The notes under the pieces: model-generated
Seen by the model: only the letters and a program-made list of their open reading frames with translations
Database searches by the model: none
Told to the model about the DNA's origin: nothing
Program-made: the position numbers and the translations under genes
Source: Bacteroidetes bacterium GWF2_35_48
GTDB taxonomy: Bacteria; Bacteroidota; Bacteroidia; Bacteroidales; GWF2-35-48
Assembly: GCA_001769125.1 (NCBI GenBank)
Contig: MEOG01000020.1
Span: 1,387 to 65,386, forward strand
Direction: 5' to 3'
DNA length: 64,000 nucleotides
Part shown: positions 2,251-28,145 of the stretch, in pieces
Layout: the number at the start of each line of letters is the position of its first letter
Numbering within the stretch: position 1 is the stretch's first letter

Positions 2251-2335
2251 GGTATAATACATCGTCCCACTTGTGCTGCGATGCATTGAGCGTAGTCGAA
2301 ATAATCGAAGTCGAAGCATGGGACGATACAGTACC
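2251..2335. repeat. REP-like palindrome carrying two nested micro-element insertions
   Basis: Arms ATCGTCCCA (2261-2269) and TGGGACGAT (2319-2327). The 49-nt centre is CTTGTGCTG[CGATGCATTGAGCGTAGTCGAAATA]ATCGAAGTCGAAGCA. Confidence 0.7.
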
Positions 2336-2337
2336 TT

Positions 2338-4719
2338 TTAATATTTAAGAGCGATTAATGTAATATCGTCTGTTTGTTCAATAGGAGAGCCTGTGTTATT
2401 TTGCCAATTAAATAGTTCGGTTTCGAAACAAATTTTTTGTTCAGCTAATGTTTTATGAGCGTTATTTTGCAGAAGCAGTTTAAAGTTTTTATGAAGATAT
2501 TTTTTGGAGGAAGGCCCTCCAAACTGGCTTTGGTAGCCATCGCTAAATAAATAAATTGTGTCGCCTTTCTGTAATTGGAATATTTGATTTGTAAAGGGGT
2601 TCATTTTTTCGTGAATTCCTATGGGTTGTTTGTCTCCCTTAACTTCGTTCAAAGTTATGGTAGATAAATCGGGGCAAATTTCCTTAATATGTAGCATCGC
2701 CCCATTTGCGCTGAGCGAAGCCGAAGCGTGGGGCGATGCTACCATTAAAGGATTATTCGCCCCTGCAAATTGAAGTTCCATCGTTTCGGTGTTTATTGCA
2801 ACAAAAGCGATATCCATACCATCTTTCACAGAGTGGTTTATTTCATAATTTCCCTTTTGATGAAGAGATTGAATGATGTGAGTTCGTAAATGATTCAACA
2901 CATCCGCAGAGGTTTGGATTTCTTTTCTTGATACAATATCATTCAGAATTGAAATTCCCATCATACTCATAAAAGCACCGGGAACGCCATGACCTGTACA
3001 ATCTCCAACAGCAAAAAGTAACATTTTTCCTTTTCTGGCAAACCAGTAAAAATCTCCGCTTACGATATCTTTCGGTTTAAAAATGACAAAAAAATCTGAG
3101 AAATAATTTTTAGGATTACTCTCTTGAGGCGAAATAACAGCTTGAATGAAATCGTTGGAAGGTATTACCGCACTTTGAATACGTTCTGCATATTTAATGC
3201 TTTCCGTAATATTTTCATTGATTAAAGAAATCTTATCTCGTTGATGCTCTATCTCGTCACGTTGAGCTGCAATTTCTTCATTCTGCTGGTTGAGCTCTTC
3301 ATTTTTCTCTTCAATTTCATGCTTTTGTTCAGCAAGAAGTTTATTCGCTTTCTTTTTTTGCATAAAGCTGTAAAAGGCAACAATTAATAAAATAAGAACC
3401 AGAATAAATCCTATACTGAAAGCTGTTTTTTGTATTTTTTGTTGTTTAATTTCGGATTTCTGTAATTCAATTTCTTTTTGTTTCTTTTCATTCTGGTATA
3501 AAGACTCCATTTCATTGAGGCTTTTTGTACTTTCAATGTTGAAAATACTATCGTTGTATTTGCTGTATAGCTTGTGGTATTTGTATGCTTCTTTATAATT
3601 ATGCAGGCTGTCATGAATTTCAGAAAGCAAAAAACAATTTGTTCTAATATCGTCTATTGAACCTGTAATTCTTGAGTAATCCATGCTTATATTAATATAA
3701 GTAAGTGCTTTGTCGTAATTTTTTAGTTTTATATAAATTCCGGCTATATTCTGGGTAACAATTGCAATCCCTTTTATATCTTCAAGCTCTTCATCAATCG
3801 CGAGTGATTTTATAAAATAATCCAGAGCTTTCTGATAATCTTTATTCTCAGAATAAATATTTCCTATATTGTTATAACAACCCGAAATTTCTCTTTTGTT
3901 TCCTGTTTGCTCCATCATTTTTTGAGAACGAATATAGTAAAGCAACGCTTTATCGGTATTTCCCTGTAGGTAATATATGTTGCCAATATTACTAAGATTT
4001 CCATAAATTCCTTTAATGTCTTGCAGCTCTTCTTTTATTTTTAATGCCTTTTCAAGATATTTCAGAGATTGTTCAAACATATTCTGCATGGCATAAATAA
4101 TACCTATGTTCGCATAACATCTTGAAATATGATTTTTATCTTTTAACTCATCGCCATATTTCAAAGATTTCAGATAGCAATCGAGCGATTCATTTAGTCT
4201 TCCCTGCTCTTTATAAATATTTGCAATACTTATATAGTAAACAGAAATTCCTTTTTCGTTTTTAATTTCCATGCTCAAACGACCTGACTTTTCATAATAT
4301 TCTAATGCAAAATTGTATTTTCCCTGATCGCTGTATATGTTTCCAATATTCAAATAACCTTGAGATTCTTTTTTTTTATTTTTTAAAGATAGATTTAATT
4401 TAAGTGCTTTCCTGTAATATTTCAGTGCAGGATGGTAATCTCCTGTTTCATAATAATAATCTCCAATCGCATTGTAGCTGTCAGAAACACCATTCATGTA
4501 ATTTATTTTTTCTGATAAATTCAACGCATTCTCAAGCATACGTTGAGCCTTGGGATTTTTATACTGAATATAGATTTCCCCAAGACGAATAAATGCACTA
4601 ATTTTTAGAGTATCGTGGTTACTGCTATTGGTAATATTCAATAGATTTTTTTCTTCATGCGTCTGCGCAAAAAGGGAGTAAGAGAAAATGACCAAAATGA
4701 CCAGAAACAGAAGCTTCAT
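2338..4719 (-). CDS. Membrane sensor phosphatase: signal peptide, TPR repeats, TM helix, coiled coil and SpoIIE/RsbU-type PP2C domain
   Basis: Repeated Y-N-I-G-x-I-Y TPR units, the TM segment AFSIGFILVLILLIVAFY, and PP2C motifs VSGDFYW, DCTGHGVPGAFMS, DGMD, FSDG and QTDDITL. Confidence 0.9.
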   Translation of the reverse strand: MKLLFLVILVIFSYSLFAQTHEEKNLLNITNSSNHDTLKISAFIRLGEIYIQYKNPKAQRMLENALNLSEKINYMNGVSDSYNAIGDYYYETGDYHPALKYYRKALKLNLSLKNKKKESQGYLNIGNIYSDQGKYNFALEYYEKSGRLSMEIKNEKGISVYYISIANIYKEQGRLNESLDCYLKSLKYGDELKDKNHISRCYANIGIIYAMQNMFEQSLKYLEKALKIKEELQDIKGIYGNLSNIGNIYYLQGNTDKALLYYIRSQKMMEQTGNKREISGCYNNIGNIYSENKDYQKALDYFIKSLAIDEELEDIKGIAIVTQNIAGIYIKLKNYDKALTYINISMDYSRITGSIDDIRTNCFLLSEIHDSLHNYKEAYKYHKLYSKYNDSIFNIESTKSLNEMESLYQNEKKQKEIELQKSEIKQQKIQKTAFSIGFILVLILLIVAFYSFMQKKKANKLLAEQKHEIEEKNEELNQQNEEIAAQRDEIEHQRDKISLINENITESIKYAERIQSAVIPSNDFIQAVISPQESNPKNYFSDFFVIFKPKDIVSGDFYWFARKGKMLLFAVGDCTGHGVPGAFMSMMGISILNDIVSRKEIQTSADVLNHLRTHIIQSLHQKGNYEINHSVKDGMDIAFVAINTETMELQFAGANNPLMVASPHASASLSANGAMLHIKEICPDLSTITLNEVKGDKQPIGIHEKMNPFTNQIFQLQKGDTIYLFSDGYQSQFGGPSSKKYLHKNFKLLLQNNAHKTLAEQKICFETELFNWQNNTGSPIEQTDDITLIALKY
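2691..2742. repeat. REP-like palindrome with a 24-nt central insert, located inside the PP2C coding sequence
   Basis: GTAGCATCGCCCCA + TTTGCGCTGAGCGAAGCCGAAGCG + TGGGGCGATGCTAC. The arms are a perfect 14-bp inverted repeat. Confidence 0.85.
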
Positions 4720-4722
4720 AAA

Positions 4723-5142
4723 TTATTTCTTTTTTTTCTTTTTTGAAATAAATTGGTCAAGTGTAGATTTAGAGAGGTATTCTTTGAATTCTTTTGTTAT
4801 TTTGCTCACAACATTTCCCATAAGGCATTTATCGAAAGGGCAAACCTGATTATCTACAGGGCAATGCGTCAGTTCGATGGGACCTTCAATGGATTCATAA
4901 ATTTTAAGCAAGGTTATTTCTGATGCTTTTTTTTTCAGGGAAAAGCCACCATAAGGGCCCCGGTTTGAGCTCAGGAAATCATCTTTAACGAGCCTTTGAA
5001 GAATTTTGGCAATATGATGTTTTGATGAGCCTGTAAGTTCTGCTATTTTTATAACATTAATTTTTTCGGATGCCTGAGCGATTAAGACCATTGAATGAAT
5101 TCCAATAGATGCTGCTTCTGATAATGTAATAAGTTTTGACAT
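4723..5142 (-). CDS. Rrf2-family Fe-S transcriptional regulator (paralog 2)
   Basis: AKILQRLVKDDFLSSNRGPYGGF and CPVDNQVCPFDKC. Clearly homologous to 1677-2093. Confidence 0.92.
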   Translation of the reverse strand: MSKLITLSEAASIGIHSMVLIAQASEKINVIKIAELTGSSKHHIAKILQRLVKDDFLSSNRGPYGGFSLKKKASEITLLKIYESIEGPIELTHCPVDNQVCPFDKCLMGNVVSKITKEFKEYLSKSTLDQFISKKKKKK

Positions 5143-5148
5143 AAAAAT

Positions 5149-5174
5149 GTATTAAGTATTTTAATGCTCAAATA
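5149..5174. promoter_or_regulatory. Putative Rrf2 operator, copy 3
   Basis: GTATTAAGTATTTTAATGCTCAAATA, immediately upstream of the ATG at 5142. Confidence 0.5.
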
Positions 5175-5310
5175 TCGGAATTTTTATTTTATGAAGTTAA
5201 AAATAGGATGATTTTTTTTGTTTCAGGTATTATAATTCCACACCTTTAATAATTTTGGTAATTCGATATTTTTAGTGGAAAATAAATAATTAACTTTATT
5301 TAAGACAAGT

Positions 5311-5410
5311 GATGCCCGGCTATTTTCAAACGGAAAACATCCTCGAGGTTTCAGCGCACCTGAAGGGTATAAACCCCGAGGGTGTTCCTATTGCATAATT
5401 AGCGGGTATT
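5311..5410. repeat. Intergenic imperfect double inverted repeat (REP/MITE-like)
   Basis: Inner arms AACATCCTCGAGGTTT and AAACCCCGAGGGTGTT. Outer degenerate arms ATGCCCGGCTA and TTAGCGGGTAT. Confidence 0.45.
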
Positions 5411-5527
5411 TAAACATTCACTAATTTTGGAGAATAACCTCTTTTACTGAAGAAAAAAGTGTGTTTGTTACCTGATTGGTATAAATCAGTTCGTTGTAAT
5501 CAAAATACATTAAGTCTTATGAAAATA

Positions 5528-7840
5528 TCATATAGTCTTTGAGACACTTGCAGGCAACTTTTCTATTGATAACAAAATATTTTCATTCGTTGCGGGGATA
5601 CAAAAATCTGGTTCAATTTTATGATTTTTAATTGAAGAAATTGCATCTTTAATTGCTAACCACACGGAAAATGCCAGCATAATAGGTGGCTCTCCAACTG
5701 CTTTGCTTTTACGAATAGCATTTGGATTTGGATATCCTTTCAGAAGTTCCACGCGAAAATCAGCAGGTATATCTTGTATTGAAGGAATTTTGTACGTATC
5801 GGGTGAATGATTGAGCAAATAACCTTTTGCATCGTACTTCATTTCCTCGGATGTAACCCAGCCCACACCTTGTATAAATGCGCCTTCTACTTGTCCTTTG
5901 TCAATATTCGGAATAATAGATTCTCCCACATCGTGCAAAATATCGGAACGCAACAATTGAACCCTGCCTGTTAAAATATCTACCTGAACTTCACTTACAG
6001 CCATTCCGAATGCAAAGTAATGAAAGGGTTTTCCTTTCCCTGTAGCTCTGTCGAAATGGATGTCAGGGGTTTTATAAAAACCTGTAGCACTCATGCTCAC
6101 TTGCTGTATGTATGCAAGAGAAACCAATTGCAGAAACGACATTTTGCGATCCGGATTTTGTGAATCGTACACTACATTATTTTCAAATACAATTGCTTTT
6201 TCGTCTGTTGGAGGGACATTATTTTTTCTCAATTCTTTTGCAGCAACAGGAATCAAGCGGTATTTCAGCTTTTCAATGGCATCTTTTACTGCCGCTCCAT
6301 TCAGGTCTGACCCAGAAGAAGCCGCTGTAGCAGATGTGTTTGGTACTTTCGATGTATTCGTTGCATTCACTTTTATCTTATCAATACTCACACCCATTTC
6401 GAGTGCTGCTATTTGTTGTATCTTTGTATTGAGTCCTTGTCCCATTTCTGAGCCGCCATGATTTACAAGAAGTGTTCCGTCAGTATAAATATTTACCAAA
6501 GCACCTGCCTGATTTAGAAATGATGAGGTAAATGAAATACCGAATTTCACAGGAGTTAACGCAATTCCTTTTTTATAAAATTCATTTTCATTATTGAATT
6601 TTTCAATATCTTTTTTTCTTTTTTCGTAAGAAGAAGAATTCATCAATTGCTCCCACAAAACATAGAGGCGGTTATTTTCTACGGTCTGTCCATAAGGTGT
6701 AGTATTGCGTTCATTGAGTCCGTAAAAATTTTTATAACGAATTTCTGCTGCATCTTTTTTAAGAATACGTGCAATTTTATCTATGATTGTTTCTACACAA
6801 GCCATCCCCTGAGGCCCACCAAAGCCACGAAATGCGACATTCGATGGCAGGTTCGTTTTCATTGCTTTACCAATGATGCGCATGTTTGGAATGAAGTACG
6901 AATTCTCAGCATGAAGCATCGCGCGTTCGAGAATGGCCATACTTAAATCGCTTGCATAACCACCATTTGCATAATGCAGCACATCTATTGCGAGAATTTT
7001 TCCATCATTATCAAATCCTGCTTTGTATTTGAACAAAAAAGGATGGCGTTTGCCTGTTATGAGCTGATCTTCGTCGCGCTGCAAACGAACTTTTACAGGT
7101 CTTTTTGTATGATGAACAAGCAGAGCAGCCCATGCTGCAAGATGATTTCCCTGTGTTTCTTTTCCTCCAAAAGCGCCACCCATTCTGCGCATTTCAACTT
7201 CAACTTCATTTTTTTGCACACCCAGAACCTCTGCAATAATTGCTTGTGTTTCCATGGGGTTTTGCGTGGAGCTGTATGCTTTGATGTCATTCCCTTCTCC
7301 GGGAACACACAAGCAGATTTGTGTTTCGAGGTACCAATGCTCCTGACCCCCTGTGATTAATTCTCCCTCAAGAATATGAGGCACATTTTTAAAAGCTTCT
7401 TCTACATTTCCACATTCAATTTTTCGCTCGGGTTGTAAAAGCATGTTTTTTTCAATTGATTCTTCAATCGTAACAACAGCAGGGAGAATTTCATACTCAA
7501 TTTTTATTACTTTTTTTGCTTCAAGCGCAGCTTCTTCACTTTCTGCAGCAATAAGAAAAACAGCCTGTCCGATACATTCCACCTTTTCAAAAGCAAGCGC
7601 CGGCTCATCGTGAAACACAGGCCCCATATTGTTGTGTCCGGGAATATCTTTATGCGATAAAATTGCATGTACACCCTTAACTTTTTTTGCTTCTTCCAAA
7701 TCAAAAGAAATAATTCGTGCATGTGCATGCGGACTGGTGTAAACAAATCCGTGCAAAAGCTGATCATTGATTTGAATATCGTCAATATAAACCGCTTCGC
7801 CGGTTACGTGGTATTTTGCGCTTTCGTGATAGGTGGTCAT
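5528..7840 (-). CDS. xdhB: Xanthine dehydrogenase molybdopterin-binding subunit
   Basis: Motifs HESAKYHVTGEAVYIDD, GGQEHWYLE, RRMGGAFGGKET, AFRGFGGPQG, TSATAASSGSDLNG and SKAVGEPP. Confidence 0.95.
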   Translation of the reverse strand: MTTYHESAKYHVTGEAVYIDDIQINDQLLHGFVYTSPHAHARIISFDLEEAKKVKGVHAILSHKDIPGHNNMGPVFHDEPALAFEKVECIGQAVFLIAAESEEAALEAKKVIKIEYEILPAVVTIEESIEKNMLLQPERKIECGNVEEAFKNVPHILEGELITGGQEHWYLETQICLCVPGEGNDIKAYSSTQNPMETQAIIAEVLGVQKNEVEVEMRRMGGAFGGKETQGNHLAAWAALLVHHTKRPVKVRLQRDEDQLITGKRHPFLFKYKAGFDNDGKILAIDVLHYANGGYASDLSMAILERAMLHAENSYFIPNMRIIGKAMKTNLPSNVAFRGFGGPQGMACVETIIDKIARILKKDAAEIRYKNFYGLNERNTTPYGQTVENNRLYVLWEQLMNSSSYEKRKKDIEKFNNENEFYKKGIALTPVKFGISFTSSFLNQAGALVNIYTDGTLLVNHGGSEMGQGLNTKIQQIAALEMGVSIDKIKVNATNTSKVPNTSATAASSGSDLNGAAVKDAIEKLKYRLIPVAAKELRKNNVPPTDEKAIVFENNVVYDSQNPDRKMSFLQLVSLAYIQQVSMSATGFYKTPDIHFDRATGKGKPFHYFAFGMAVSEVQVDILTGRVQLLRSDILHDVGESIIPNIDKGQVEGAFIQGVGWVTSEEMKYDAKGYLLNHSPDTYKIPSIQDIPADFRVELLKGYPNPNAIRKSKAVGEPPIMLAFSVWLAIKDAISSIKNHKIEPDFCIPATNENILLSIEKLPASVSKTI

Positions 7841-7926
7841 AATTGTAAAGTAAAAAATTTTGATACTATTTCTTTTTAAAAAAATACATAAGTACTAATA
7901 TTTGTCTTTCTCAATAAGGAAATATG

Positions 7927-9351
7927 TTATTTTGTTTCGCTCCAAAATTTCAGTAAAAGATTTCTTGCCATTATTTTACGGGCATCTGCACCTGAACGGG
8001 CATCTGAGATAGGTGTGAATTCTTCATCAATCAGGGTCATGGTCTGCTCCACATGCTCCCTTGTCCATTCTTTACCGAGCAAATAATTTTCTGCTTTTGC
8101 AGCACATTTTGTAAGTGCAGCCATTCCTCCGTAATATAAGGCAATCTCTTTTACAATTCCACTTTCAATCTTTAATCTGAATCCTGCGCTGACAGTAGAA
8201 ATATCCATATCTTTCCGCTTGGATACCTTATACGATTTCACAATAGTTCCTTCGGATAATTTCGGAATAATTACAGAGGTAATCAATTCGTCGTTTTTTA
8301 ATTGTGTAGTACGATACGACACTACAAATTCCCGCAGTTTTATTTCACGGCTGGAACTTGCATTTTCCACACAAACACTTGCATCGTAGGCCATCAGTAC
8401 CGGAGGCGTATCTCCAATGGGAGAAGCAGAACCGATATTTCCACCCAGCGTGGCTTTATTTCTTATCTGTTTTGAACCAAAAACACTCAGCATTTCATAC
8501 AAGGCAGGAAATATTTTTTTGCTTTTCATGCGCACATCTTCCATGCAAGCACCACTGCCAAAAATTACAGCATCAGACTTTGTTTGTATTTTCTTTAGTC
8601 CCGCAATATGAGATAGATCAAGCAGCATGGGTAAAAATTCTTTTTTCTTTGTAACACGCAGCGCAATATCTGTAGCGCCATTTATTACTAATGCATCAGG
8701 ATATTTTGCTTTAAGACTTAATGCCTTTGCTTTGGTAAAAGGAATAAAATAATTTTGTTTTCCTGTATTGAGAGAAATAGCAGTTTTCGTATTTATGCAT
8801 TCAAGCATTTTGATTATTTCAGGCTCTTCTTCAGAAAATTTATCTTTTCCCTCCAACTTGCAGGCGCGCTGGGTGGCTTCAATTATGGGTCTGTAACCGG
8901 TACAACGGCATAAATTACCTGTAAGCGCATCATTTATTTCAGCAAGCGTAGGTTTCTTGAATTGCTTGAAAACGGCAAACATGCTCATCACAAAACCGGG
9001 AGTGCAAAACCCACACTGGCTGCCATCTGTTTCTATCATTGCCTGCTGAACGGGGTGCAAATTTGTTGAATTTCCAAGGTTTTCAACTGTCAGAAGCTGC
9101 TTGCCGTGGAGCATTGGAAGAAAGATGATACAACTGTCATAAGCGCGGTATTCCAATTTTCCGTTTTTATTTTCAGCAATAACTACAGTACAAGCACCAC
9201 AATCGCCTTCGGCACAACCTTCTTTTACTCCTTTATGCCCGGACAGACTGCGAAGGTATTGAAGTACGGTTGTTGTGGGCGTATACACAGAATTTGAAAA
9301 ATCTATTTCCGTTAATTTGTTTCCTAAAAGGAATGTAATTTTTTGTGACAT
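7927..9351 (-). CDS. xdhA: Xanthine dehydrogenase small subunit (2x[2Fe-2S] + FAD)
   Basis: Motifs KEGCAEGDCGAC, GSQCGFCTPGF, GNLCRCTGY, and FAD-binding QIRNKATLGGNI. Confidence 0.95.
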   Translation of the reverse strand: MSQKITFLLGNKLTEIDFSNSVYTPTTTVLQYLRSLSGHKGVKEGCAEGDCGACTVVIAENKNGKLEYRAYDSCIIFLPMLHGKQLLTVENLGNSTNLHPVQQAMIETDGSQCGFCTPGFVMSMFAVFKQFKKPTLAEINDALTGNLCRCTGYRPIIEATQRACKLEGKDKFSEEEPEIIKMLECINTKTAISLNTGKQNYFIPFTKAKALSLKAKYPDALVINGATDIALRVTKKKEFLPMLLDLSHIAGLKKIQTKSDAVIFGSGACMEDVRMKSKKIFPALYEMLSVFGSKQIRNKATLGGNIGSASPIGDTPPVLMAYDASVCVENASSSREIKLREFVVSYRTTQLKNDELITSVIIPKLSEGTIVKSYKVSKRKDMDISTVSAGFRLKIESGIVKEIALYYGGMAALTKCAAKAENYLLGKEWTREHVEQTMTLIDEEFTPISDARSGADARKIMARNLLLKFWSETK

Positions 9352-9366
9352 AGGGTTTATTTTTGA

Positions 9367-9484
9367 CGGTATTGTAGAATCGCTCCATGGAGCGATTTTA
9401 CATTACCGTATTATATTTCTAACATCAATTAATTTCGCCAGTATGCTGACCGCAATCTCTTGTGACTTTTCAGCAATAAATTTA
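9367..9484. repeat. Direct repeat copy A: REP palindrome (9368-9407) plus a diverged duplicate of the xdhC 3' end
   Basis: Aligns without gaps to 9777-9894 (offset 410), with about 9 mismatches counted by eye. The minus strand encodes ...KSQEIAVSILAKLIDVRNIIR*. Confidence 0.9.
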
Positions 9485-10577: not shown

Positions 10578-10726
10578 TTTTATGAATTTTGTTGCAATCA
10601 CAAATATATTATTTTTTTGTTTAACCGATATGATTTTTATCGCATTGTTTCTAATCTTTGCTGCAATTATTTCTTTATAAATAAATTTTTTCTTTACTTG
10701 CATTGATTTTTATAAAACCTTAAAAA

Positions 10727-12870: not shown

Positions 12871-12946
12871 TGTTGCAGGTTGCAGGTTGCAGGTTGGCTT
12901 CGACTTCGCTCAACCACCCTGAACAGGAAACTTGCAACTTGCAACA
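12871..12946. repeat. Inverted heptamer arrays (GTTGCAG)n / (AACTTGC)n with a central micro-element
   Basis: TGTTGCAGGTTGCAGGTTGCAGGTT, then GGCTTCGACTTCGCTCAACC (12896-12915), then AACTTGCAACTTGCAACA. Confidence 0.75.
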
Positions 12947-19687: not shown

Positions 19688-19708
19688 TACAGATAATAAA
19701 ATTTATTC

Positions 19709-20950: not shown

Positions 20951-20976
20951 GATAATTTATTTTAAAATTTATGAGG

Positions 20977-20984
20977 CAAAGTTA
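20977..20984 (-). promoter_or_regulatory. Bacteroidota -7 promoter box
   Basis: Minus-strand TAACTTTG upstream of the GTG start at 20950. Confidence 0.55.
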
Positions 20985-21080
20985 ATTTTTTTAGAAATGA
21001 AAAAGAGAAAATAAAAATATTTATTATATGAGCTTGGGTAAAATGTGGGAAATGTTGTTGGAGAAGGGAGTTTGGAGAGT

Positions 21081-21313
21081 AAAGTCGGTAGTCGGCAGTC
21101 GAAAAAGTCAGCAGTCAGCAGTCAGGAAGTCAGCAGTCAGCAGTCAGGCAGTCGGCAGTCAGCAGTCAGCAGTCAGCAGTCAGCAGTCAGCAGTCAGCAG
21201 TCAGGAAGTCAGGAAGTCGGCAGTCAGGAAGACTGTAGGCTGAGGACTGAGGACTGTAGACTGAGGACTGTAGACTGAGGACTGTAGACTGAGGACTGTA
21301 GACTGTAGACTGA
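21081..21313. repeat. Head-to-head heptamer arrays (AGTCAGC/AGTCGGC)n then (GACTGAG/GACTGTA)n
   Basis: Directly visible. The CAGTC and GACTG cores are reverse complements. Confidence 0.92.
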
Positions 21314-21370
21314 TTAAAAAAATCTTTTTACCTAAAATAAATTATTGCCAGAAACTTGTATCAATACAGT

Positions 21371-22036
21371 TCAATCTCTCGGAAAAACATAGCCAATCTG
21401 AAAGCCTGCTGTAAAGCCGAGTTTGCCAAAGCGGTATATGCCTCTGATGCCTCCATAAGCACCAGCAAAAAAATTATCTTTAACCTGAAAATAGGCTTTA
21501 ATTCCGGTTTCGCCGCTCATGTAAATTGTTTTGGGAAGCGTTTCGAGGCGACGGGCATAGTCAACACCAAAAGGATTTACATAAATTGAAAAAGCAAATT
21601 GCGAGAAATTCCGGGGATGAATTTTAAAATTTACACCCTCGGGCAACAGCAATGTAAGAATACTCAGAAACACCCAGCCTCCACGGTTCGAGTCTGCTTC
21701 TAAAGCAAACATTAACATATAGGGAGAAACAACCGTTCCCGGAGTTCCATGAACTGAATACAGCTTGTTGTCTTTATAACTAAGTGAGAATTTATAGTTC
21801 AACGAAAGAAAATCAGTAACAGATGGTTCAAAAGAAATACCCATGCTCCATACCTGCTGGTTTCCATAAAATGTAAGATCAGGAGTTAAGGCAGCTGTCC
21901 AGCCTGTTTGAAAAATAGAAGAAGTGGTAGATTTCCCTGATTTTACAAGCGGATTGCCAGCATAGATGTTTGCAATAAAAAAAGAAAAACAAAGAAAGCA
22001 AAAAAGTTTTCGGATGTTGTTAACAGATACGCACAT
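21371..22036 (-). CDS. Hypothetical exported protein, possibly an outer-membrane beta-barrel
   Basis: Signal-peptide-like N-terminus and amphipathic strands ending in AGFQIGYVF. Confidence 0.55.
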   Translation of the reverse strand: MCVSVNNIRKLFCFLCFSFFIANIYAGNPLVKSGKSTTSSIFQTGWTAALTPDLTFYGNQQVWSMGISFEPSVTDFLSLNYKFSLSYKDNKLYSVHGTPGTVVSPYMLMFALEADSNRGGWVFLSILTLLLPEGVNFKIHPRNFSQFAFSIYVNPFGVDYARRLETLPKTIYMSGETGIKAYFQVKDNFFAGAYGGIRGIYRFGKLGFTAGFQIGYVFPRD

Positions 22037-22052
22037 TTTTCACAATAGAATT

Positions 22053-22060
22053 TAACTTTG
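22053..22060 (+). promoter_or_regulatory. Bacteroidota -7 promoter box upstream of purD
   Basis: TAACTTTG about 27 nt before the ATG. Confidence 0.55.
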
Positions 22061-22087
22061 TAAAGTTACAAAAAAATCAAAACAGAT

Positions 22088-23368
22088 ATGAATATTTTGC
22101 TTTTAGGCTCCGGTGGCAGAGAACACACCCTCGCATGGAAAATGAATCAAAGTAACTTGTTAAAAAAACTTTTTATCGCACCCGGAAATGCAGGCACTTT
22201 GCAGGCAGGCACAAATGTTTCTCTTGATATTTTAAATTTTGAATCTGTTGGAATATTCTGTATTGAAAACAATATTGAGATGTTAATTGTTGGTCCCGAA
22301 GAACCCCTTGTTAAAGGGATATGTGATTATTTTCAATCAGAAGAACGCTTGAAACATATTGCATTAATTGGCCCCACAAAAACGGGCGCACAATTAGAGG
22401 GCAGCAAAGATTTTTCCAAGCAGTTTATGGAAAGATATAATATACCAACAGCGCGATACAAGAGCTTTACAAGAGATACTGTTGCAGATGGATTTCAGTT
22501 TTTAAAATCGTTACAAGCTCCTTATGTTTTAAAAGCAGACGGACTTGCAGCCGGAAAAGGTGTTATTATTCTTGAGAATATAACAGAAGCTCAAATAGCA
22601 CTTGCAGATATGCTTGAAGGCAAATTTGGCGATGCAAGCAAAACCGTAGTTATTGAAGAATATTTGCATGGAATTGAAATGTCTGCTTTTGTTGTAACAG
22701 ATGGAAAAAGTTATAAAATTTTGCCTGAGGCTAAAGATTACAAACGCATTGGAGATAGCGACAAAGGGTTGAATACAGGAGGCATGGGAGCCGTATCGCC
22801 TGTTCTTTTTGCTAATGATGAGTTCATGAAAAAGCTCGAAGATCGTGTAATAAGGCCAACAATAAAAGGGCTGCTGAATGAAAGTATTCATTATTGCGGG
22901 TTTATTTTTTTCGGAATTATGAATGTGAAAGGAGATCCTTATGTTATTGAATACAACGCGAGGATGGGCGATCCGGAAACAGAAGTTGCTGTACCCAGAA
23001 TAAAAAATGACCTTGTGGAAATTTTTATTGCAATGGCCAAAGGCAATCTTGAAAAAATAAATATTGATATAGATAAAAGAACCGTAACGACAGTAATGAT
23101 GGTCTCTGAAGGATACCCGGAAGCGTATGAAAAAGGAAAAGAAATTTCAGGATTAGAATGTGTGGAAAACTGTATCCCCTTTCATGCAGGTACAAAATTA
23201 GAGGATGAAAAAATTGTAACAAACGGTGGAAGAGTAATTGCTGTAAGCGCTTTTGGGAAAAATATTCAGGAAGCAAGAAATTTATCGTACCAGGGAGTTG
23301 CAGTAATAAATTATGAGGGAAAATATTTCAGAAAAGATATCGGTTCAGACTTAATGAATCTAAAATAA
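22088..23368 (+). CDS. purD: Phosphoribosylamine-glycine ligase
   Basis: Motifs LGSGGREH, APGNAG, LEGSKDFSK, KADGLAAGKGV, NTGGMGA and GDPETE. Confidence 0.98.
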   Translation: MNILLLGSGGREHTLAWKMNQSNLLKKLFIAPGNAGTLQAGTNVSLDILNFESVGIFCIENNIEMLIVGPEEPLVKGICDYFQSEERLKHIALIGPTKTGAQLEGSKDFSKQFMERYNIPTARYKSFTRDTVADGFQFLKSLQAPYVLKADGLAAGKGVIILENITEAQIALADMLEGKFGDASKTVVIEEYLHGIEMSAFVVTDGKSYKILPEAKDYKRIGDSDKGLNTGGMGAVSPVLFANDEFMKKLEDRVIRPTIKGLLNESIHYCGFIFFGIMNVKGDPYVIEYNARMGDPETEVAVPRIKNDLVEIFIAMAKGNLEKINIDIDKRTVTTVMMVSEGYPEAYEKGKEISGLECVENCIPFHAGTKLEDEKIVTNGGRVIAVSAFGKNIQEARNLSYQGVAVINYEGKYFRKDIGSDLMNLK

Positions 23369-23394
23369 AAAAAGGAGCGAAAAGCTCCTTTTTT
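23368..23394. terminator. Bidirectional intrinsic terminator
   Basis: AAAAAAGGAGC-GAAAA-GCTCCTTTTTT between convergent genes. Confidence 0.85.
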
Positions 23395-23395
23395 A

Positions 23396-24097
23396 TTACT
23401 CTTTATTGAGTTTATATTTTATTCTGGCAATATATTTTTCGGCTTTTCGCGACTCCTGACTTTTTGAAAAATCTTTTTCTATTATTTCATAAATTTTCAG
23501 AGCATTATCCATGTCGCCCAGCTTTTCATAAGCCAAGGCAGCTTTCATGAAGAAAACCGGACTTGTAAAATCATTGTTTACTTTTTCAGCAGCTTTCAAA
23601 TAAAAATCTACGGCTTCTTTTGTTTTTCCAAGTTCCATGTTCGCGTCTCCGATACCGCCAATTGCAAGGGGTGCAAGAAATTTATCGCTGGATTTGAATT
23701 GATCAAGATATTCAATAGCTTTAGGAAAATCTTTCAGACGCAAATAGCACATTCCTGCATAGTATTTTGAAAGGTTACCGCTTTTTGTACTTCCGTATTC
23801 TTCGATGATATTTAAAAATCCAAAATAATTGCCATCGCCATTTAAAGCAATACGGAAAGAGTCTTTTTCAAAATATTGTTCAGCCACGAACATTTGTTTT
23901 TGAGCTTCTTCCTGTTTTGGTTTTAGATAAAAACTGTTATAAAGAAGATAACCGCCAATGACAACTATAATTGCTCCAATCACACCGGAGATAATCTTTT
24001 TATTATCTTCAATAAATTGTTCGGTTCTGCTGAGAGCGGTGTCAACAGCTATGATTTTATCGTCTGAATTATCAATATTGCTTTTTTCTTTTGCCAT
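23396..24097 (-). CDS. Membrane-anchored TPR protein (YfgM-like)
   Basis: A single N-terminal TM helix, the ALNGDG motif and TPR helices. Confidence 0.8.
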   Translation of the reverse strand: MAKEKSNIDNSDDKIIAVDTALSRTEQFIEDNKKIISGVIGAIIVVIGGYLLYNSFYLKPKQEEAQKQMFVAEQYFEKDSFRIALNGDGNYFGFLNIIEEYGSTKSGNLSKYYAGMCYLRLKDFPKAIEYLDQFKSSDKFLAPLAIGGIGDANMELGKTKEAVDFYLKAAEKVNNDFTSPVFFMKAALAYEKLGDMDNALKIYEIIEKDFSKSQESRKAEKYIARIKYKLNKE

Positions 24098-24335
24098 AAT
24101 AACTTATGTATTCAATTTTAAAGAGTGCAAATGTATGATTTTTATGAAATAAATAAAAAAAAATATTTTTTTTGTTGCTTGTTGCCTGAAATACAGTAAG
24201 AAGAGTTAATTGATTGTGTGTTTTATATCTCTGTTTAGCTCTTATTAATCCTTTTAAATTTTCAAATGAACATCATTTTTTAAATCAAAAGCTCTTTTAT
24301 ATCTTTGAAAATCAAATCTATTAAAAAAATATTCT

Positions 24336-25271
24336 ATGCAAAGCTTCAGAACGATACTGTTTACAGCCCTTTTGGTAATATCAGGCTTTTATCTTTTTGC
24401 TCAATATTCTGTACATATAAATCAGCCGCCACCAGTAAGCCGACCTCAGATTTGTTTAGTTACGGTAAGTCCGGAATCTGATAAAAATCTTATTGTATGG
24501 GAAAAAAATAATGCAGAACGTGTTGCTGAATATAAAATATACAAAAGAGATGATAATGATTTACAATATTATCCTATCGGAATAAAATCTGTAACAGAAA
24601 CAGGAATTTTTGCAGATTCTGCATCAACACCTCATCTCAAATCAAACTATTATAAAATTTCTGCAATTGATTCATGTGGAAAAGAGAGCGAACTCAGCGA
24701 CGCGCATAAAACAATTTATTTATCTGTAAGTGATGAGGGAAATTCTTTTTTGCTTGAATCAGAACACTACGAGGGGCTTTCGTTTCAAAATTATGAGATA
24801 TGGCGCGGCATTCAGGCTGATAATCTTTTTTGGATCGGCGTTAATCCTGCTGACAGTATATTTTATTCAGATATTAACGCGCCGGGTGGAACTTTTTTTT
24901 ATCAGTTAAAAATGAACTTGCCAGTTCCTTGTAACCCTGAACAAGCAAAAGAACTCAGCGGGCCTTTCATGAAATCTCTTTCAAATATTGAGGGAGTAAG
25001 CAATGTTTCTGCTTTATTACATTTTAATAAAAATAAATCCCTCATAATATTTCCCAATCCTTTTTCAGAAAAAACTAAAATTATTTTTTTAAATCCGGAA
25101 GCAAAAGAATATTCTTTAACCCTCACAGATATAACAGGAAAGCCGGTTTACGTGAAAGAAAAAATAAGATCTAATTCTGTAGAAATTGAAAAGGGAACGT
25201 TGAAGCCGGGTTATTACAATCTGATTTTAAAAGGAGAAAAATGTGAATATGGGATGTTGATCGTTAACTGA
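24336..25271 (+). CDS. Secreted protein with a T9SS type-A C-terminal sorting domain
   Basis: Signal peptide and FN3-like YYKISAIDSCGKES. CTD reads IFPNPF...LTDITGK...LKPGYYNL...LIVN. Confidence 0.8.
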   Translation: MQSFRTILFTALLVISGFYLFAQYSVHINQPPPVSRPQICLVTVSPESDKNLIVWEKNNAERVAEYKIYKRDDNDLQYYPIGIKSVTETGIFADSASTPHLKSNYYKISAIDSCGKESELSDAHKTIYLSVSDEGNSFLLESEHYEGLSFQNYEIWRGIQADNLFWIGVNPADSIFYSDINAPGGTFFYQLKMNLPVPCNPEQAKELSGPFMKSLSNIEGVSNVSALLHFNKNKSLIIFPNPFSEKTKIIFLNPEAKEYSLTLTDITGKPVYVKEKIRSNSVEIEKGTLKPGYYNLILKGEKCEYGMLIVN

Positions 25272-25289
25272 TATTTCGGGAATAGTGGA

Positions 25290-25418
25290 AAAGTCGGCAG
25301 TCGGCAGTCGAAAGAGTCAGCAGTCGGCAGTCAAATAGTCGGCAGTCATGAAGACTGAAAACTGAAAACTGAAAACTGAAAACTGAAGACTGAAGACTGA
25401 GGACTGAAGACTGAAGAC
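25290..25418. repeat. Second copy of the head-to-head heptamer element (AGTCGGC)n / (GACTGAA)n
   Basis: Shares the lead-in AAAGTCGG.AGTCGGCAGTCGAAA.AGTCAGCAGTC and the junction AGTCGGCAGTCA.GAAGACTG with 21081-21313. Confidence 0.88.
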
Positions 25419-25467
25419 CAATTAATAATTTTTTTTTTATATAACATAAGTAATAACCTAATTAAGG

Positions 25468-27933
25468 ATGAAAAAACTATATATTATTTTAATATTTCTT
25501 GCCGGTTTTAGTAAACTGTATGCTCAGCAATATGAATGTCAGGGAAGTTTATTTGATATTTTGTTAACGGGATTTCAGGAGGGTACAATATCATGGCAGC
25601 AGTCGGAAGATTCTTCTATATGGGAAATTATTCCGGGAGAAAATGATACAATTCTGGTTCAGAATGCAAGCCAGTCTTTGTACTACAGGGCTATGGTCGT
25701 AAATGAAAATTGTACTTCTTTTTCTTCTGTTACACGAATAATTATTGTTACCGCTACAGATGCTGCTATTGCAGGAGCAGATCAGGTAATTTCAAATGGT
25801 ATTGTTGCCACTTTATCTGCGCAACCTGTTACTAATGGCGCGGGAAGTTGGAGTATTTTATCAGGCTCAGGTGGTCTTATTGAGAATTCAGAAAATGCAG
25901 CAACAACGTTTACAGGCTTAAATTGCGGAGAGTATCAGCTCGTGTGGACTGTGGAAAATAATCCCTGTCCCGCCAGTGCAGATACGATTACAATAATTTT
26001 TCAGAATTACCCCACAACAGCGAGTGCAGGGAATGATCAGGTTATAACAAATTCTAATAGTACTACTATTTCTGCGCAGGTTGCAACAACAGGAACAGGA
26101 CAGTGGAGTATTCTATCCGGAATCGGAGGCTCCATTGGTGTATCAGCAAATGCAATCACGACATTTTCAGGTCAGAATTGCGCAAGCTACCAGCTATTGT
26201 GGACAGTTGAAAACAATCCATGTACCGCATCTGTTGATACGCTTTCTGTTATTTTTCAATACGAGCCTTCGGATGCAATTGCAGGGCAGAATCAAAACGG
26301 AACACAAATGTGCGGTTTAACATCTGCAAGTTTAAATGCAACAGCGCCTTCAAATGGGGTAGGACTCTGGACTGTGTTATCAGGAAATGGTGGCAGTTTC
26401 AGTGATGCATCTTTGCCCGATGCCGTTTTTTCAGGATTAGCAGGTGTGTCGTATTCACTAAAATGGGCTATTACAAATGGAAATTGTCCTGAAAAAAGTG
26501 ATACAATACTTGTCCGTTTTCGTCAAAATCCTTCTCTTGCAAATGCCGGTCAAGATATGACAGGCGTTGAAACCTGTGGTTTATCATCACTCTCGCTTTC
26601 TGCAACAGCACCAGTAGTTGGGACAGGAACATGGAGCATCGTGAGTGGCAATCCCGGCTTTTCAGATATTTATGCGCCGGATGCAACAATCATCGCAATG
26701 TCGGGAAGTTCTGTTGTTTTGTTGTGGACTGTGGAAAATGATTCCTGTACAGCAAGTACAGATCAAATAAATATTATTTTCAATCAAAATCCTTCACAAG
26801 CCAATGCAGGAGCAGATTATACAGGAGCCTCAACCTGTGGCATCACATATCTGACAATACCCGCGAATACACCTGCAGTTGGAGTCGGTGTATGGACTAT
26901 TGAAAATGGCTCTGGTGGGAGCTTTGCAGATGCAAATAATCCTTTTGCCGATTTTACAGGAATTGCCGGCACATTATATACCTTGCGCTGGACCATTTCA
27001 AATGCGCCCTGTCCTGCTTCTTCAGATGACATGCTTGTACAATTTCATCAAAATCCTTCTGCTGCAAATGCAGGAACGGATCAAGCTTTTAACGGCAGTA
27101 CCGTAACACTGGCAGCACAAAGTCCATCAGTAGGTATTGGAAACTGGAGTATTTTGAGTGGTACCGGAGGAACAATTTCTAATCCGACTAATCCTTCAAG
27201 CGGCTTTACCGGGTTGCAAGGATTAAGCTATCAGCTAATATGGACGGTATCGAACGCGCCCTGCAATTCCAATTCAGATACGGTAACTATTTGTTTATTT
27301 GTATGTGGGAATCCTTTTACTGATTACAGGGATGGCAGAACATACATTTCTTTGCAGATTGGCTCACAATGCTGGATGGGGCAAAATCTTAATATCGGCA
27401 ATATGATTGCTGCCAATACAAACCAGTTGCATAATCAGATTTATGAAAAATATTGTTATGATAATGATACAAACCAGTGCAATACGTGGGGAGGCTTGTA
27501 TCAGTGGGGCGAAATGGTGCAGTACCTCAATGGTGCATCGAATGCGGCAAGCTGGAATCCCATTCCCACGGGTTACATACATGGCATTTGCCCGACAGGC
27601 TGGCATCTTCCGAATGATCAGGAATGGAGTACTCTGACTACATTAAATGGTGGATTGGGGCTTGCAGGCGGAGAAATGAAAGAAACCGGTACAAGCCATT
27701 GGGCAAGTCCAAACACCGGAGCTACAAACAACAGCGGATTTTCTGCAATTCCATCGGGGCAAAGGGTTGCCGGAATTTTTCAGGACAAAAGCTTTTATGC
27801 TTACTTTTGGTCAACAACTGAATATTCAGCAATAAATGCATACAACAGGACACTCAGATACGACGACATGGGAATCCTATATCTTGGCTATTCTAAGCAA
27901 TATGGAAAATCGGTAAGATGTATAAGAGATTGA
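25468..27933 (+). CDS. Exported protein with about 6 Ig/PKD-like repeats and a C-terminal Fibrobacter succinogenes major paralogous (FISUMP) domain
   Basis: Repeats A-x-AG-x-DQ...G-x-WSILSG...Y-x-L-x-WT-x-x-N-x-x-C. The C-terminal domain has DYRDGRTY..QIGSQCWMGQNL, GGLYQW, GICPTGWHLP, GFSAIPSG and SVRCIRD. Confidence 0.88.
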   Translation: MKKLYIILIFLAGFSKLYAQQYECQGSLFDILLTGFQEGTISWQQSEDSSIWEIIPGENDTILVQNASQSLYYRAMVVNENCTSFSSVTRIIIVTATDAAIAGADQVISNGIVATLSAQPVTNGAGSWSILSGSGGLIENSENAATTFTGLNCGEYQLVWTVENNPCPASADTITIIFQNYPTTASAGNDQVITNSNSTTISAQVATTGTGQWSILSGIGGSIGVSANAITTFSGQNCASYQLLWTVENNPCTASVDTLSVIFQYEPSDAIAGQNQNGTQMCGLTSASLNATAPSNGVGLWTVLSGNGGSFSDASLPDAVFSGLAGVSYSLKWAITNGNCPEKSDTILVRFRQNPSLANAGQDMTGVETCGLSSLSLSATAPVVGTGTWSIVSGNPGFSDIYAPDATIIAMSGSSVVLLWTVENDSCTASTDQINIIFNQNPSQANAGADYTGASTCGITYLTIPANTPAVGVGVWTIENGSGGSFADANNPFADFTGIAGTLYTLRWTISNAPCPASSDDMLVQFHQNPSAANAGTDQAFNGSTVTLAAQSPSVGIGNWSILSGTGGTISNPTNPSSGFTGLQGLSYQLIWTVSNAPCNSNSDTVTICLFVCGNPFTDYRDGRTYISLQIGSQCWMGQNLNIGNMIAANTNQLHNQIYEKYCYDNDTNQCNTWGGLYQWGEMVQYLNGASNAASWNPIPTGYIHGICPTGWHLPNDQEWSTLTTLNGGLGLAGGEMKETGTSHWASPNTGATNNSGFSAIPSGQRVAGIFQDKSFYAYFWSTTEYSAINAYNRTLRYDDMGILYLGYSKQYGKSVRCIRD

Positions 27934-27945
27934 GTGAAAAATAAA

Positions 27946-27988
27946 AAAAAATCCCGTTACACAAGATCATTGAACAGCGGGATTTTTT
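27946..27988 (+). terminator. Hairpin / probable terminator after the FISUMP gene
   Basis: Arms AAAAAATCCCG and CGGGATTTTTT with a long loop. Confidence 0.5.
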
Positions 27989-28100
27989 ATACATTTTAAA
28001 ATGCAAGATTTTGTCATAAAATTTGCAGTTTAACCTTTTTTTACAAAAGAAAATTTCGGGCAAATTTTTCGCCAAAATTGTTTATGTATCAGTTGTTTTT

Positions 28101-28145
28101 ACCCCGAGCTTATTTCGACTTCGCTCAATAACCATTGCTCGGGGT
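28101..28145. repeat. REP-like palindrome with a central micro-element
   Basis: ACCCCGAGC + TTATTTCGACTTCGCTCAATAACCATT + GCTCGGGGT. Confidence 0.75.

Follow-up and report, generated by a model that had tools for sequence, protein, structure and literature searches.

Very small hairpin repeats in Bacteroidetes bacterium GWF2_35_48 and their association with a single-domain GIY-YIG nuclease gene

No enzyme has been on record for dispersed repeats of some 24 bases since these became known in 2008, and we know of none that mobilises the small dispersed repeats (SDRs) of Nostoc. According to the 2008 abstract of Elhai and colleagues, some SDR families reportedly have a hairpin fold in common, maintained through compensatory changes, and in the same work some families are said to lie inside heptamer arrays, minitransposons and copies of themselves. 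The families concerned, SDR1-8, are small dispersed repeats of Nostoc punctiforme, and one of the papers that cite them (PMC5861425; PMC3116915) reports no SDR-type repeat outside the Nostocaceae.

Larger palindromic repeats are better provided with enzymes, in that REP and REPIN sequences go with RAYT tyrosine transposases; a survey of such repeats distinguishes GTAG-tagged from CGTC-tagged palindromes, the latter with a CGTC tag, an 8–9 bp stem that begins with A-T pairs, a 4–5 base loop and a CCA tail, and also cites the palindromic elements of Rickettsia as in-frame repeats in protein genes that stay open (Di Nocera et al., 2013; PMC3733652). A further system is formed by the Ssn single-strand DNA nucleases (clade CDD cd10448), which pair with hairpin repeats termed NTS or Ssn-related motif and whose characteristic activity is to cut single-stranded DNA at specific sites beside the hairpin, duplex DNA and RNA being left intact (Chenal et al., 2025; PMC11893778).

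Here we describe a family of very small hairpin repeats which, on balance, is probably partnered with an Ssn-like single-domain GIY-YIG nuclease and gained and lost at single-stranded DNA; one clade of tiny GIY-YIG nucleases thereby becomes a candidate enzyme for repeats of this size. The family came to light in a window of 64,000 nucleotides, positions 1,387-65,386 of contig MEOG01000020.1 in assembly GCA_001769125.1 (Bacteroidetes bacterium GWF2_35_48), to which all coordinates below refer.

A preliminary description of the window had claimed five sites occupied by the unit, together with an empty palindrome, and each of its coordinates checked out. The empty palindrome (709..740, no strand assigned) is of the GTAG type (REP A), and direct reading shows its two halves, ending in CCCCA and starting with TGGGG, to abut. 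A second GTAG-type palindrome (2692..2741, + strand; arms 2692-2704 and 2729-2741), in frame within a gene, carries a 24-base module at 2705-2728, which is the exact centre of the palindrome, between the CCCCA and TGGGG halves, and the whole folds as a single uninterrupted hairpin bearing a 5′ bulge of four bases (z −5.7). A third (2262..2326, + strand; arms 2262-2269 and 2319-2326) encloses a 49-base pair of nested modules and reaches z −4.5 when the composite is folded as single-stranded DNA. The outer module of this pair, 24 bases long (2270..2318, + strand), is split after the TG of its top into pieces at 2270-2278 and 2304-2318, and its top is degenerate, with two mismatches in the core at 2302-2315; intact counterparts of the nested composite were found in three places in the same genome (C51, C89 and C121). 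The inner module (2279..2303, + strand), of 25 bases and with an intact top at 2287-2300, belongs to a CGATGCRY-armed subfamily, fifteen more members of which are inserted after the TG of another top elsewhere in the genome.

Both remaining copies lie on the reverse strand. One (12892..12919, − strand; top 12899-12912) is placed between inverted heptamer arrays at about 12872-12895 and 12931-12945, and the other has its core at 28114-28127, within the 27-base loop (28110-28136) of the central palindrome (CCCCGAGC / GCTCGGGG) of a MITE-like repeat (28102..28144, − strand). The window thus contains four exact copies of the 14-base core and one with two mismatches, compared with a mean of 0.68 in shuffled sequences, none of which (0/100) reached five. 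At gathering thresholds, Rfam returned no family match in the window.

Genome-wide, the unit consists of a short variable stem carrying a conserved top, TGAG followed by 4–5 variable bases and YCGAA, usually with an unpaired 5′ tail of 3–6 bases. There are 314 such hairpins, compared with eight for the reversed pattern, and their immediate contexts are of 263 distinct kinds; the modal module length is 24 bases, with 27 and 21 next. The pattern proposed in the preliminary description captured a real motif, with 113 exact copies against none for its reverse, but was drawn too narrowly, as core position 7 can be any base (A 66, G 64, T 22, C 4); with N at that position the genome holds 190 copies, and a sister class exists with a 13-base top. 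Stems of 3–8 bp vary in sequence yet remain complementary, with at least three flanking pairs in 64 of 66 consensus copies as against 6% of 20,000 random positions. The first stem pair is most often C-G (145) or T-A (77), and each stem position shows several pair types.

Within the stems, G.T is commoner than A.C on the core strand, which suggests that one strand folds. In our inferred fold of the conserved part, a small variable loop is carried on one T-A pair, two sheared G.A pairs and one G-C pair. A GNA-triloop mini-hairpin, known from the d(GCGAAGC) motif, was also considered for the core: it fits the variable positions 7 and 10 but not the 13-base class, for which reason we prefer the tandem G.A arrangement, both folds being predictions. 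Folded alone, a 24-base module is no more stable than its shuffles (z +0.4), only the composite with host arms being stable. The flank profile of the 314 copies contains no GTAG, this tag belonging to the host palindrome, and nine hairpin strings recur in identical form in other taxa.

The module behaves as an independent element, as had been claimed: it measures 23–24 bases, and its filled and empty sites are precise and lack target duplication. All such comparisons are between paralogous copies within one genome. The GTAG palindromes of the genome comprise 51 empty copies, 17 with a 24-base insert, five into which a 23-base unit of the sister class is inserted, and four composites, with no target duplication at the inserts. 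Of the MITE-like element there are 19 copies with a loop of 3–4 bases, eight with a 27-base loop and one with 51 bases; in an alignment of five copies a 23-base block is the only large difference within the shared core, although one of the five carries a further insert, of 28 bases, close to one of its ends. Filled and empty states of this element both occur within one flank sub-lineage. All nine filled copies, however, hold nearly the same insert in the same orientation, and among the GTAG palindromes insert variants correlate with variants of the host arms, so that many filled copies may stem from few events, with the host repeat multiplying after it was filled. The nearest genomes of the same genus share about 70–76% DNA identity, and synteny with them stops at the nested site. 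In another genus (G274 compared with G214 and G285) a hairpin doublet in one species corresponds to a plain terminator hairpin at the same spacer in another, in spacers too diverged to give a precise junction.

Self-nesting, proposed from a single case in the window, proved recurrent. Throughout the genome, removal of a nested unit exactly restores the top of the split copy around it in 38 cases (control, 0), the break lying after TG in 15 and in the apical loop in 23; 37 of the nested units have the orientation of the copy they split, and the outer stems of these host copies differ from one another. Insertion into palindromes of other kinds is likewise enriched, about ten-fold at palindrome centres. 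The proposal that a host inverted repeat encloses every copy in its loop describes the copies in the window but only a minority genome-wide: an outer helix of at least 6 bp surrounds 61 of 314 copies (1.4% with permuted flanks, 2.3% at random positions), and a second definition gives 77 of 314, a share of 19–25% that is still about ten times chance. Heptamer arrays adjoin 67 copies, and at least six unrelated contexts share the same top. For 165 of the 314 copies no host palindrome exists, which makes hairpin tips a favoured rather than an obligatory site.

The gene that travels with the hairpins encodes a small GIY-YIG nuclease, which was not among the candidates named in the preliminary description. 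Its product has 109 residues, with a Pfam GIY-YIG domain at residues 2-74 (E 1.8e-18) and no other domain, and the nearest solved structures are the UPF0213 proteins 1zg2 (E 8e-13) and 1ywl. The two densest hairpin clusters of the genome, of 7 and 9 copies, fall within 3.4 kb around this best GIY-YIG gene, with three hairpins upstream of it, one over its 3′ end and more downstream. Among relatives, the four closest homologues have hairpins on both sides and ten more distant GIY-YIG loci have none. When the 80 closest homologues in other genomes were taken, from Bacteroidota and some other phyla, 77 of the 80 loci had at least one hairpin and 43 had hairpins on both sides within 400 bases, giving 295 hairpins in 237 kb against none in the control.

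The association was also apparent in a sample of 300 genomes of the phylum, in which a homologue was defined by E ≤ 1e-20 and a repeat-rich genome by at least 10 copies: 19 of 38 genomes with a homologue were repeat-rich, compared with 19 of 262 without. Five repeat-rich genomes lacking a close homologue yielded only distant GIY-YIG genes, the single hairpin-flanked one of which is broken by a stop codon. A homologue of 77% identity comes from a genome with just one copy of the 14-base core, yet hairpins with the 13-base core flank the gene. Loop class clusters weakly on the nuclease tree (13 changes against 17.2 with shuffled labels), in a tree of 88 columns with few supported branches and related rows that share labels; we do not take this clustering as evidence of co-evolution.

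The arrangement resembles that of the Ssn systems in several respects (Chenal et al., 2025; PMC11893778). In both, a single-domain GIY-YIG protein of about 100 residues is encoded by a gene bracketed by its own hairpin repeat, in a repeat-gene-repeat layout resembling an insertion sequence; hundreds more copies of the repeat are scattered over the genome, and the repeats are polar, flank and orientation being of consequence. Tyr6, Tyr16 and Glu63 of the present protein occupy the positions of the catalytic mutants Y6, Y17 and E64 (PMC11893778). In contrast, the published repeats have a conserved stem and flanks with a short loop, whereas here the stem varies and a top of 13–14 bases is conserved. 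A search of the genome with the published Ssn-related motif gave one match, against four in block-shuffled sequence, and overlapped none of 264 core copies. No Bacteroidota genome is among the 29 that define that motif, the strings TCGAA and CTGAG are absent from the ten supplementary files we searched, and the available text does not describe unit-length insertion into hairpin tips (PMC11893778). The present family would extend the pairing of Ssn-type nuclease and hairpin to repeats in which the top is conserved and the stem free to vary, and since the published search motif misses conserved-top repeats, the true spread of Ssn-type systems has probably been underestimated. Nucleases of this type are also of interest for the site-directed cutting of single-stranded DNA.

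With its gene bracketed by hairpins and its protein built like the Ssn single-strand DNA nucleases, the enzyme would most likely recognise, in single-stranded DNA, the hairpin that one strand folds into, and cut beside or within it. Hairpins of unit length would then be gained or lost wherever DNA becomes single-stranded, whether at the tips of GTAG palindromes, of the MITE central palindrome, of terminators and of heptamer-armed hairpins or at the top of another copy, and a gain would leave no target duplication. GIY-YIG enzymes hydrolyse DNA, and we know of none with strand-transfer activity, so that the insertion step of this scheme would draw on a chemistry not known for the family.

Spread could instead have needed no enzyme of its own and have come about through gene conversion between tips, template switching or replication slippage, with the GIY-YIG gene a separate selfish cassette that uses the hairpins as landing sites or ends. 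We hold this to be unlikely, even though one in two repeat-rich genomes of the phylum sample has no close homologue, and fold-back copying would give rise to stems that vary while staying complementary more readily than would a long series of paired mutations; tandem arrays of hairpins, with periods of 21, 26 and 48 bases, are likewise in its favour, and the nuclease cassette can itself be present in frame within a different gene, behaviour expected of a mobile cassette. For close homologues, however, the association is very tight (77 of 80 loci), and the non-palindromic top and polar 5′ tail are conserved across classes and phyla, which points to recognition by a protein. Slippage alone would not lead one to expect nesting at two defined places and almost always in one orientation.

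The near-uniform filled MITE copies and the tracking of host-arm variants by insert variants, both noted above, are also what one would see if the unit were not separately mobile and formed an integral loop variant of larger repeats, or a host signal such as a terminator or protein-binding site, with filled forms as multiplied sub-families. Some copies do occur in terminator-like hairpins with an A-run and a T-run, and copies are depleted in divergent, promoter-bearing spacers (18 of 253 intergenic copies, as against 21% of spacer length). This reading is improbable given the almost random orientation to transcription (81 copies in the same direction as flanking genes, 110 opposite), the recurrence of one top in unrelated and highly diverse contexts, the copies that stand alone, the mixture of filled and empty states in one MITE flank sub-lineage, the nested copies whose hosts have different outer stems, the copies inside open reading frames and the identical modules that flank the nuclease gene in other classes. 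Least probable are the links suggested in the preliminary description, by which the unit would be a REP-type element mobilised either by a reverse transcriptase or by a tyrosine HUH transposase of the RAYT or IS200-like kind. The host palindromes bear GTAG tags like those of RAYT-linked REPs, the genome has about ten Y1 transposase matches and two copies lie about 600 bases from one Y1 locus; the units themselves nevertheless carry no GTAG tag, no copy lies within 1.5 kb of eight of the nine Y1 loci examined, which leaves essentially no HUH/RAYT link, and the single reverse transcriptase gene of the genome is on a contig without any copy.

The likeness to Nostoc SDRs put forward in the preliminary description holds in size and in habits, as judged from descriptions of SDRs. 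Both are very small (21–27 bases there, a mode of 24 here) and dispersed in many copies, and the settings are alike, with the heptamer-array copies, nine copies in the MITE-like element and the self-nested units in the present genome. They differ in phylum, and in that the hairpins described here have a candidate enzyme. On the N. punctiforme plasmid pNPUN01 the top motif was not enriched (two matches, four in the control) and no GIY-YIG gene was found. A literature search by topic and with top-motif strings on both strands found no description of the motif within the literature searched, the only string matches being in an unrelated zebrafish kidney preprint and an archaeosine paper. We would suggest, very tentatively, that a single-domain GIY-YIG single-strand nuclease might drive an undescribed form of transposition, in which hairpins of 23–27 bases, the smallest known bacterial mobile units, are cut out and set into hairpin loops or their own tops without target duplication, and that the SDRs of Nostoc, with different sequences and perhaps different small nucleases, might be explained in the same way.

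With REPs the units share a short, mostly intergenic hairpin form, frequent inverted doublets, a position flanking a single-copy nuclease gene and the occurrence of some copies within other palindromes or in frame in genes (PMC3733652). They differ from REPs in a partner gene of the GIY-YIG type rather than a Y1 HUH enzyme, in having neither a GTAG nor a CGTC tag, and in being shorter and dispersed as single units rather than doublets. Compared with CGTC-tagged REPs in particular, the stems are of 3–8 bp and open with C-G or T-A, and the top is of 13–14 bases.

Such units add in-frame residues to proteins, can pass for terminators and form nested palindromes at which assemblies break. The in-frame copy at 2692-2741 belongs to a gene for a 793-residue TPR / PP2C (SpoIIE-type) sensor (2338..4719, − strand), in which palindrome and module together form an insert in the phosphatase domain. 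On alignment with six homologues, four have 2–3 residues where the sensor protein has about 26, which places the insert in a length-variable loop of the protein; the nearest relatives of the sensor in a metagenome scan are only about 40% identical. This insert, with those in about 30 other open frames, recalls the palindromic elements of Rickettsia, which are much longer and unrelated in sequence, and for which no nesting at hairpin tips has, to our knowledge, been described. In all, 31 of the 314 hairpin copies lie in long open frames, compared with 2182 of 3000 random positions.

The copies of the small hairpin repeat named in the preliminary description could all be read in the window where it had placed them. 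The 14-base core of this unit—its conserved top, TGAG, variable bases and YCGAA—occurs there as four intact copies and one degenerate copy, against a mean of 0.68 in shuffled sequences, none of 100 of which reached five. A 24-base block at 2705–2728 interrupts a GTAG-type palindrome precisely at the junction of its halves; the same palindrome occurs uninterrupted, as the empty form, at 709–740. The split copy at 2270–2318 is interrupted after its first two core bases by a 25-base copy at 2279–2303. Two copies lie on the opposite strand, one (core 12899–12912) flanked by inverted heptamer arrays and the other (core 28114–28127) occupying the loop of a CCCCGAGC/GCTCGGGG palindrome. The inverted 7-base arrays at 12872–12945 (TTGCAGG on the left, the complement of its A/G variant on the right) form arms around the hairpin and pair with G·T wobbles on one strand. 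The copy at 2705–2728 and its host palindrome are in frame within a PP2C-type sensor gene and, by alignment, the insert site is a loop of the protein, with ~26 residues here and 2–3 in four of six homologues. The source genome is a draft of 5.98 Mb with 34.8% G+C.

The core pattern initially proposed matched this genome 113 times, with no matches to the reversed pattern used as a control for chance, but the true family proved larger: any base is found at core position 7 (A 66, G 64, T 22, C 4), position 10 is C or T, and in a sister class the middle is shorter by one base. We defined the unit generally as TGAG, four or five variable bases and YCGAA, with three or more complementary bases immediately on either side. 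This definition recovered 207 hairpins in which the middle has five bases and 107 in which it has four (reversed pattern: 2 and 6, respectively), and these 314 hairpins occupy 263 distinct immediate contexts. A flanking stem accompanies 64 of 66 consensus copies, compared with 6% of 20,000 random positions; its sequence varies among copies while complementarity is kept, and the closing pair is C–G (145) or T–A (77). Read on the core strand, G·T pairs far outnumber A·C pairs in the stems, which suggests that the core strand is the one that folds, although many of the copies counted are mutually related. The 5′ side usually bears an unpaired tail of 3–6 bases, for which CCG is a weak consensus. 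Of 77 modules delimited by an outer host helix, 24 are 24 bases long, 13 are 27 bases long and 10 are 21 bases long.

Because variation is confined to the middle of the top, TGAG and CGAA would be expected to form a T–A pair, two sheared G·A pairs and a G–C pair under a loop of 5–6 bases. Nearest-neighbour folding of the unit returned a short stem only, and a 24-base unit folded alone was no more stable than its shuffles (z = +0.4); together with its host arms, the unit formed a single hairpin, slightly bulged on the 5′ side (z = −4 to −5.7).

Within this single genome, three host repeats exist in both filled and empty form. Among 87 matches to the GTAG palindrome, 51 have nothing between the arms, 17 carry a 24-base insert bearing the 14-base core, five carry a 23-base insert bearing the 13-base core of the sister class, four (the window's among them) are composites of 44–49 bases, and 10 are adjoining palindromes or unrelated sequence. 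With the insert disregarded, the arms join precisely as they do in empty palindromes, and hence no target sequence is duplicated. A MITE-like element of ~235 bases, bounded by 17-base terminal inverted repeats, has the CCCCGAGC palindrome at its centre; the loop of this palindrome measures 3–4 bases in 19 copies, 27 bases in eight and 51 bases in one. When three filled and two empty copies of this element were aligned, a 23-base block was the sole large difference in the shared core (one empty copy has an additional 28-base insert near its left end), and flank variants of a filled copy were common to empty copies. The nine filled MITE-like copies carry a near-identical insert in one orientation and, in the GTAG palindromes, insert variants go with host-arm variants. 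Both findings speak against numerous separate insertions, and some of the filled copies therefore probably stem from a host that multiplied after it had been filled. The MITE-like repeat, of which ~28 copies were seen, has a second internal hairpin (GACTCC..GGAGTC); the copy in the window (27990–28180) seemingly lacks the terminal repeats.

Units also serve as hosts to one another: 38 lie inside another unit, the top of which is restored letter for letter on their removal (reversed control 0), and 37 of the 38 share the orientation of their host. The host is split inside its apical loop, and thus on the symmetry axis, in 23 cases, and after its first two bases in 15, all with a CGATGYRY left arm; the nested pair in the window belongs to the latter class, its host top having decayed. 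Over all hosts, junctions were seen at three places: the boundary of the 5′ tail, the position following TG of the top, and the apical loop. Within one inner subfamily the stems of the hosts differ, which argues for several nesting events. At C8:8325, C1:4155, C58:13969 (contigs of this genome) and other sites, a single intact unit is surrounded by stacked half units, both left (GCGATG-type heptamers) and right (AGCTTGCCGAA), in an arrangement that looks like several rounds of nesting at one TG/AG position; some heptamer-like arrays may be piled-up half units.

Of the 314 copies, 61 are enclosed, beyond their own stem, by an outer helix of 6 bp or more lying no further than 6 bases away, compared with 1.4% when the left and right flanks of the copies were permuted and 2.3% at random genome positions; counted with Watson–Crick-only stems, the figure is 77 of 314. 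No host palindrome surrounds 165 copies, and a few copies sit in terminator-like hairpins. Hairpin tips are therefore strongly preferred but not required, and the earlier reading, that of a very small module residing at hairpin tips, is upheld in part: the unit is a module with separate filled and empty states and tips are its favoured sites, but it also resides outside them. Heptamer arrays adjoin 67 of the 314 copies, raising the question of whether such arrays grow from hairpin stems.

Coding sequence is avoided, with 31 of 314 copies in long open frames compared with 2182 of 3000 random positions, and divergent spacers hold just 18 of 253 intergenic copies although they account for 21% of spacer length. 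Where the flanking genes, as crudely called, are co-directional, 81 copies are oriented with them and 110 against them, a weak bias that favours a DNA-level element over an RNA signal. At C95:5047–13559 and C64:47188–48520, at least seven units lie inside long open frames of ~680–760 codons, oriented as their frames and with flanks related between the two loci; these frames may represent a repeat-bearing protein family.

For the mobilising enzyme, the preliminary description had pointed to HUH/RAYT transposases or reverse transcriptases, and neither link held in this genome. There are ~10 matches to Y1 transposases, with no copy of the unit within 1.5 kb at eight of nine loci examined and two copies ~600 bases away at the ninth, while the sole reverse transcriptase gene sits on a copy-free contig. 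We identified a better candidate in a small GIY-YIG nuclease. The best of five GIY-YIG matches in the genome, a 109-residue single-domain protein, is encoded at C39:112369–112698, in the genome's densest cluster of copies (nine in 1.5 kb), adjoining the second densest (seven in 230 bases), and the other four GIY-YIG loci have no copies. Three hairpins of one type lie upstream of the gene and a fourth overlaps its 3′ end, where it is translated as the last residues of the protein. We infer that this nuclease cuts the hairpins and thereby moves them. At C39:113544–113600 (2676–2731 of locus L020), three incomplete units, repeated in tandem every 21 bases, encode the N-terminal repeat SGVEAPV ×3 of a 225-residue open frame.

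The closest described system is that of the Ssn nucleases, single-domain GIY-YIG enzymes that cut ssDNA upstream of a hairpin repeat, at a distance of a few bases; this repeat brackets the nuclease genes and has hundreds of further copies, a layout likened by the authors to that of an insertion sequence (Chenal et al., 2025; PMC11893778). The two systems are alike as far as anatomy goes, and the SsnA residues lethal to activity when mutated (Y6, Y17, E64) have counterparts in Y6, Y16 and E63 of the 109-residue protein, the nearest solved structures to which are two UPF0213 proteins. The repeats themselves differ: Ssn repeats have a conserved stem and flanks and a short loop, whereas those of GWF2_35_48 have a free stem and a conserved top of 13–14 bases. 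The published Ssn search motif had one site in the GWF2_35_48 genome (four in shuffled sequence) and matched none of the copies; the 29 genomes behind that motif include none from the Bacteroidota (PMC11893778). Other families have been reported to include REPs that lie within another palindrome or, in frame, within a gene (PMC3733652). Sequence variants of the top were sought in the literature accessible to the search, with no relevant hit. The small dispersed repeats (SDRs) of Nostoc, which Elhai and colleagues are said to have described in 2008, are reportedly small, nested, and found within heptamer arrays and minitransposons, and the GWF2_35_48 units match them in all these respects; the top motif showed no enrichment on the one Nostoc punctiforme plasmid searched. 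We class the unit as a nuclease-partnered hairpin repeat with an Ssn-like layout and SDR-like size and habits.

Among 40 relatives, hairpins whose top is of the same kind lie on either side of the four closest homologues of the nuclease (100, 77, 62 and 52% identity), while ten loci of more distant GIY-YIG genes had no hairpins. In a homologue scan of one genome per species, in which the best 80 of 588 relatives (60–79% identity) were kept, at least one hairpin lies within 1.5 kb at 77 of these 80 loci and hairpins occur on both sides within 400 bases at 43; the 237 kb around them contain 295 hairpins and no matches to the reversed pattern. Typically, two hairpins in inverted orientation, ~55 bases apart, precede the gene and another such pair follows it, and the class of top near the gene tracks the protein tree weakly. 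Hosts of the best 80 are mostly Bacteroidota, species of Winogradskyella, Aquimarina, Chryseobacterium and Cloacibacterium among them, with single records labelled Ignavibacteriales, Candidatus Electronema, Gammaproteobacteria, Dehalococcoidia, Candidatus Kuenenia, Melainabacteria and Cardiobacteriales, these being metagenome bins that may include mis-binned sequence. When a loose pattern and its reverse were counted across the whole genome in five such bins, the totals were 107 and 33 (Ignavibacteriales), 75 and 19 (Kuenenia), 26 and 13 (Electronema), 24 and 12 (Dehalococcoidia) and 5 and 28 (Melainabacteria), so that wide dispersal seems to occur mainly in Bacteroidota and their neighbours. 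GWF2_35_48 shares nine identical hairpin strings, each made up of the top and five stem bases on either side, with loci of other taxa, one of which is the Ignavibacteriales bin.

Across 300 other genomes of the phylum, the 14-base core was found in 143 (reversed control at most 2 per genome) and a nuclease homologue at E ≤ 1e−20 in 38. At least ten copies were present in 19 of the 38 genomes with a homologue and in 19 of the 262 without one, a comparison that covers the 14-base core class only and in which related genomes are not independent. The co-occurrence of nuclease homologue and repeats is real but loose. Five repeat-rich genomes without a close homologue have distant GIY-YIG genes only, of which one alone is flanked by hairpins and is interrupted by a stop codon. 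The repeats can therefore persist after the gene is lost or spread beyond it, a behaviour known from REPs.

Three loci in other genomes deserve mention. At locus L120 (genome G194, C11:185127–188363), in a genome with 148 core copies and no close nuclease homologue, a 45%-identical GIY-YIG frame is broken by a TAG codon, and the left arm of the flanking hairpins, GTCATGC, recalls the CGTCAT start of the Neisseria repeat. In a genome of the same genus as GWF2_35_48 (G002, locus L022, C135:32725–36000; protein P0004), a GIY-YIG gene and its two flanking hairpins lie in frame, with no stop codons, inside a frame resembling a type I restriction enzyme R subunit, between the early helicase motifs and the DECH box; the cassette is like an in-frame selfish insert. 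In the Ignavibacteriales bin (G339, locus L041), head-to-tail hairpin arrays with a 26-base period occupy contig ends (C2:11–182 and C9:12–157), and such unit-length tandem arrays could give unit-length pieces if cut once per unit.
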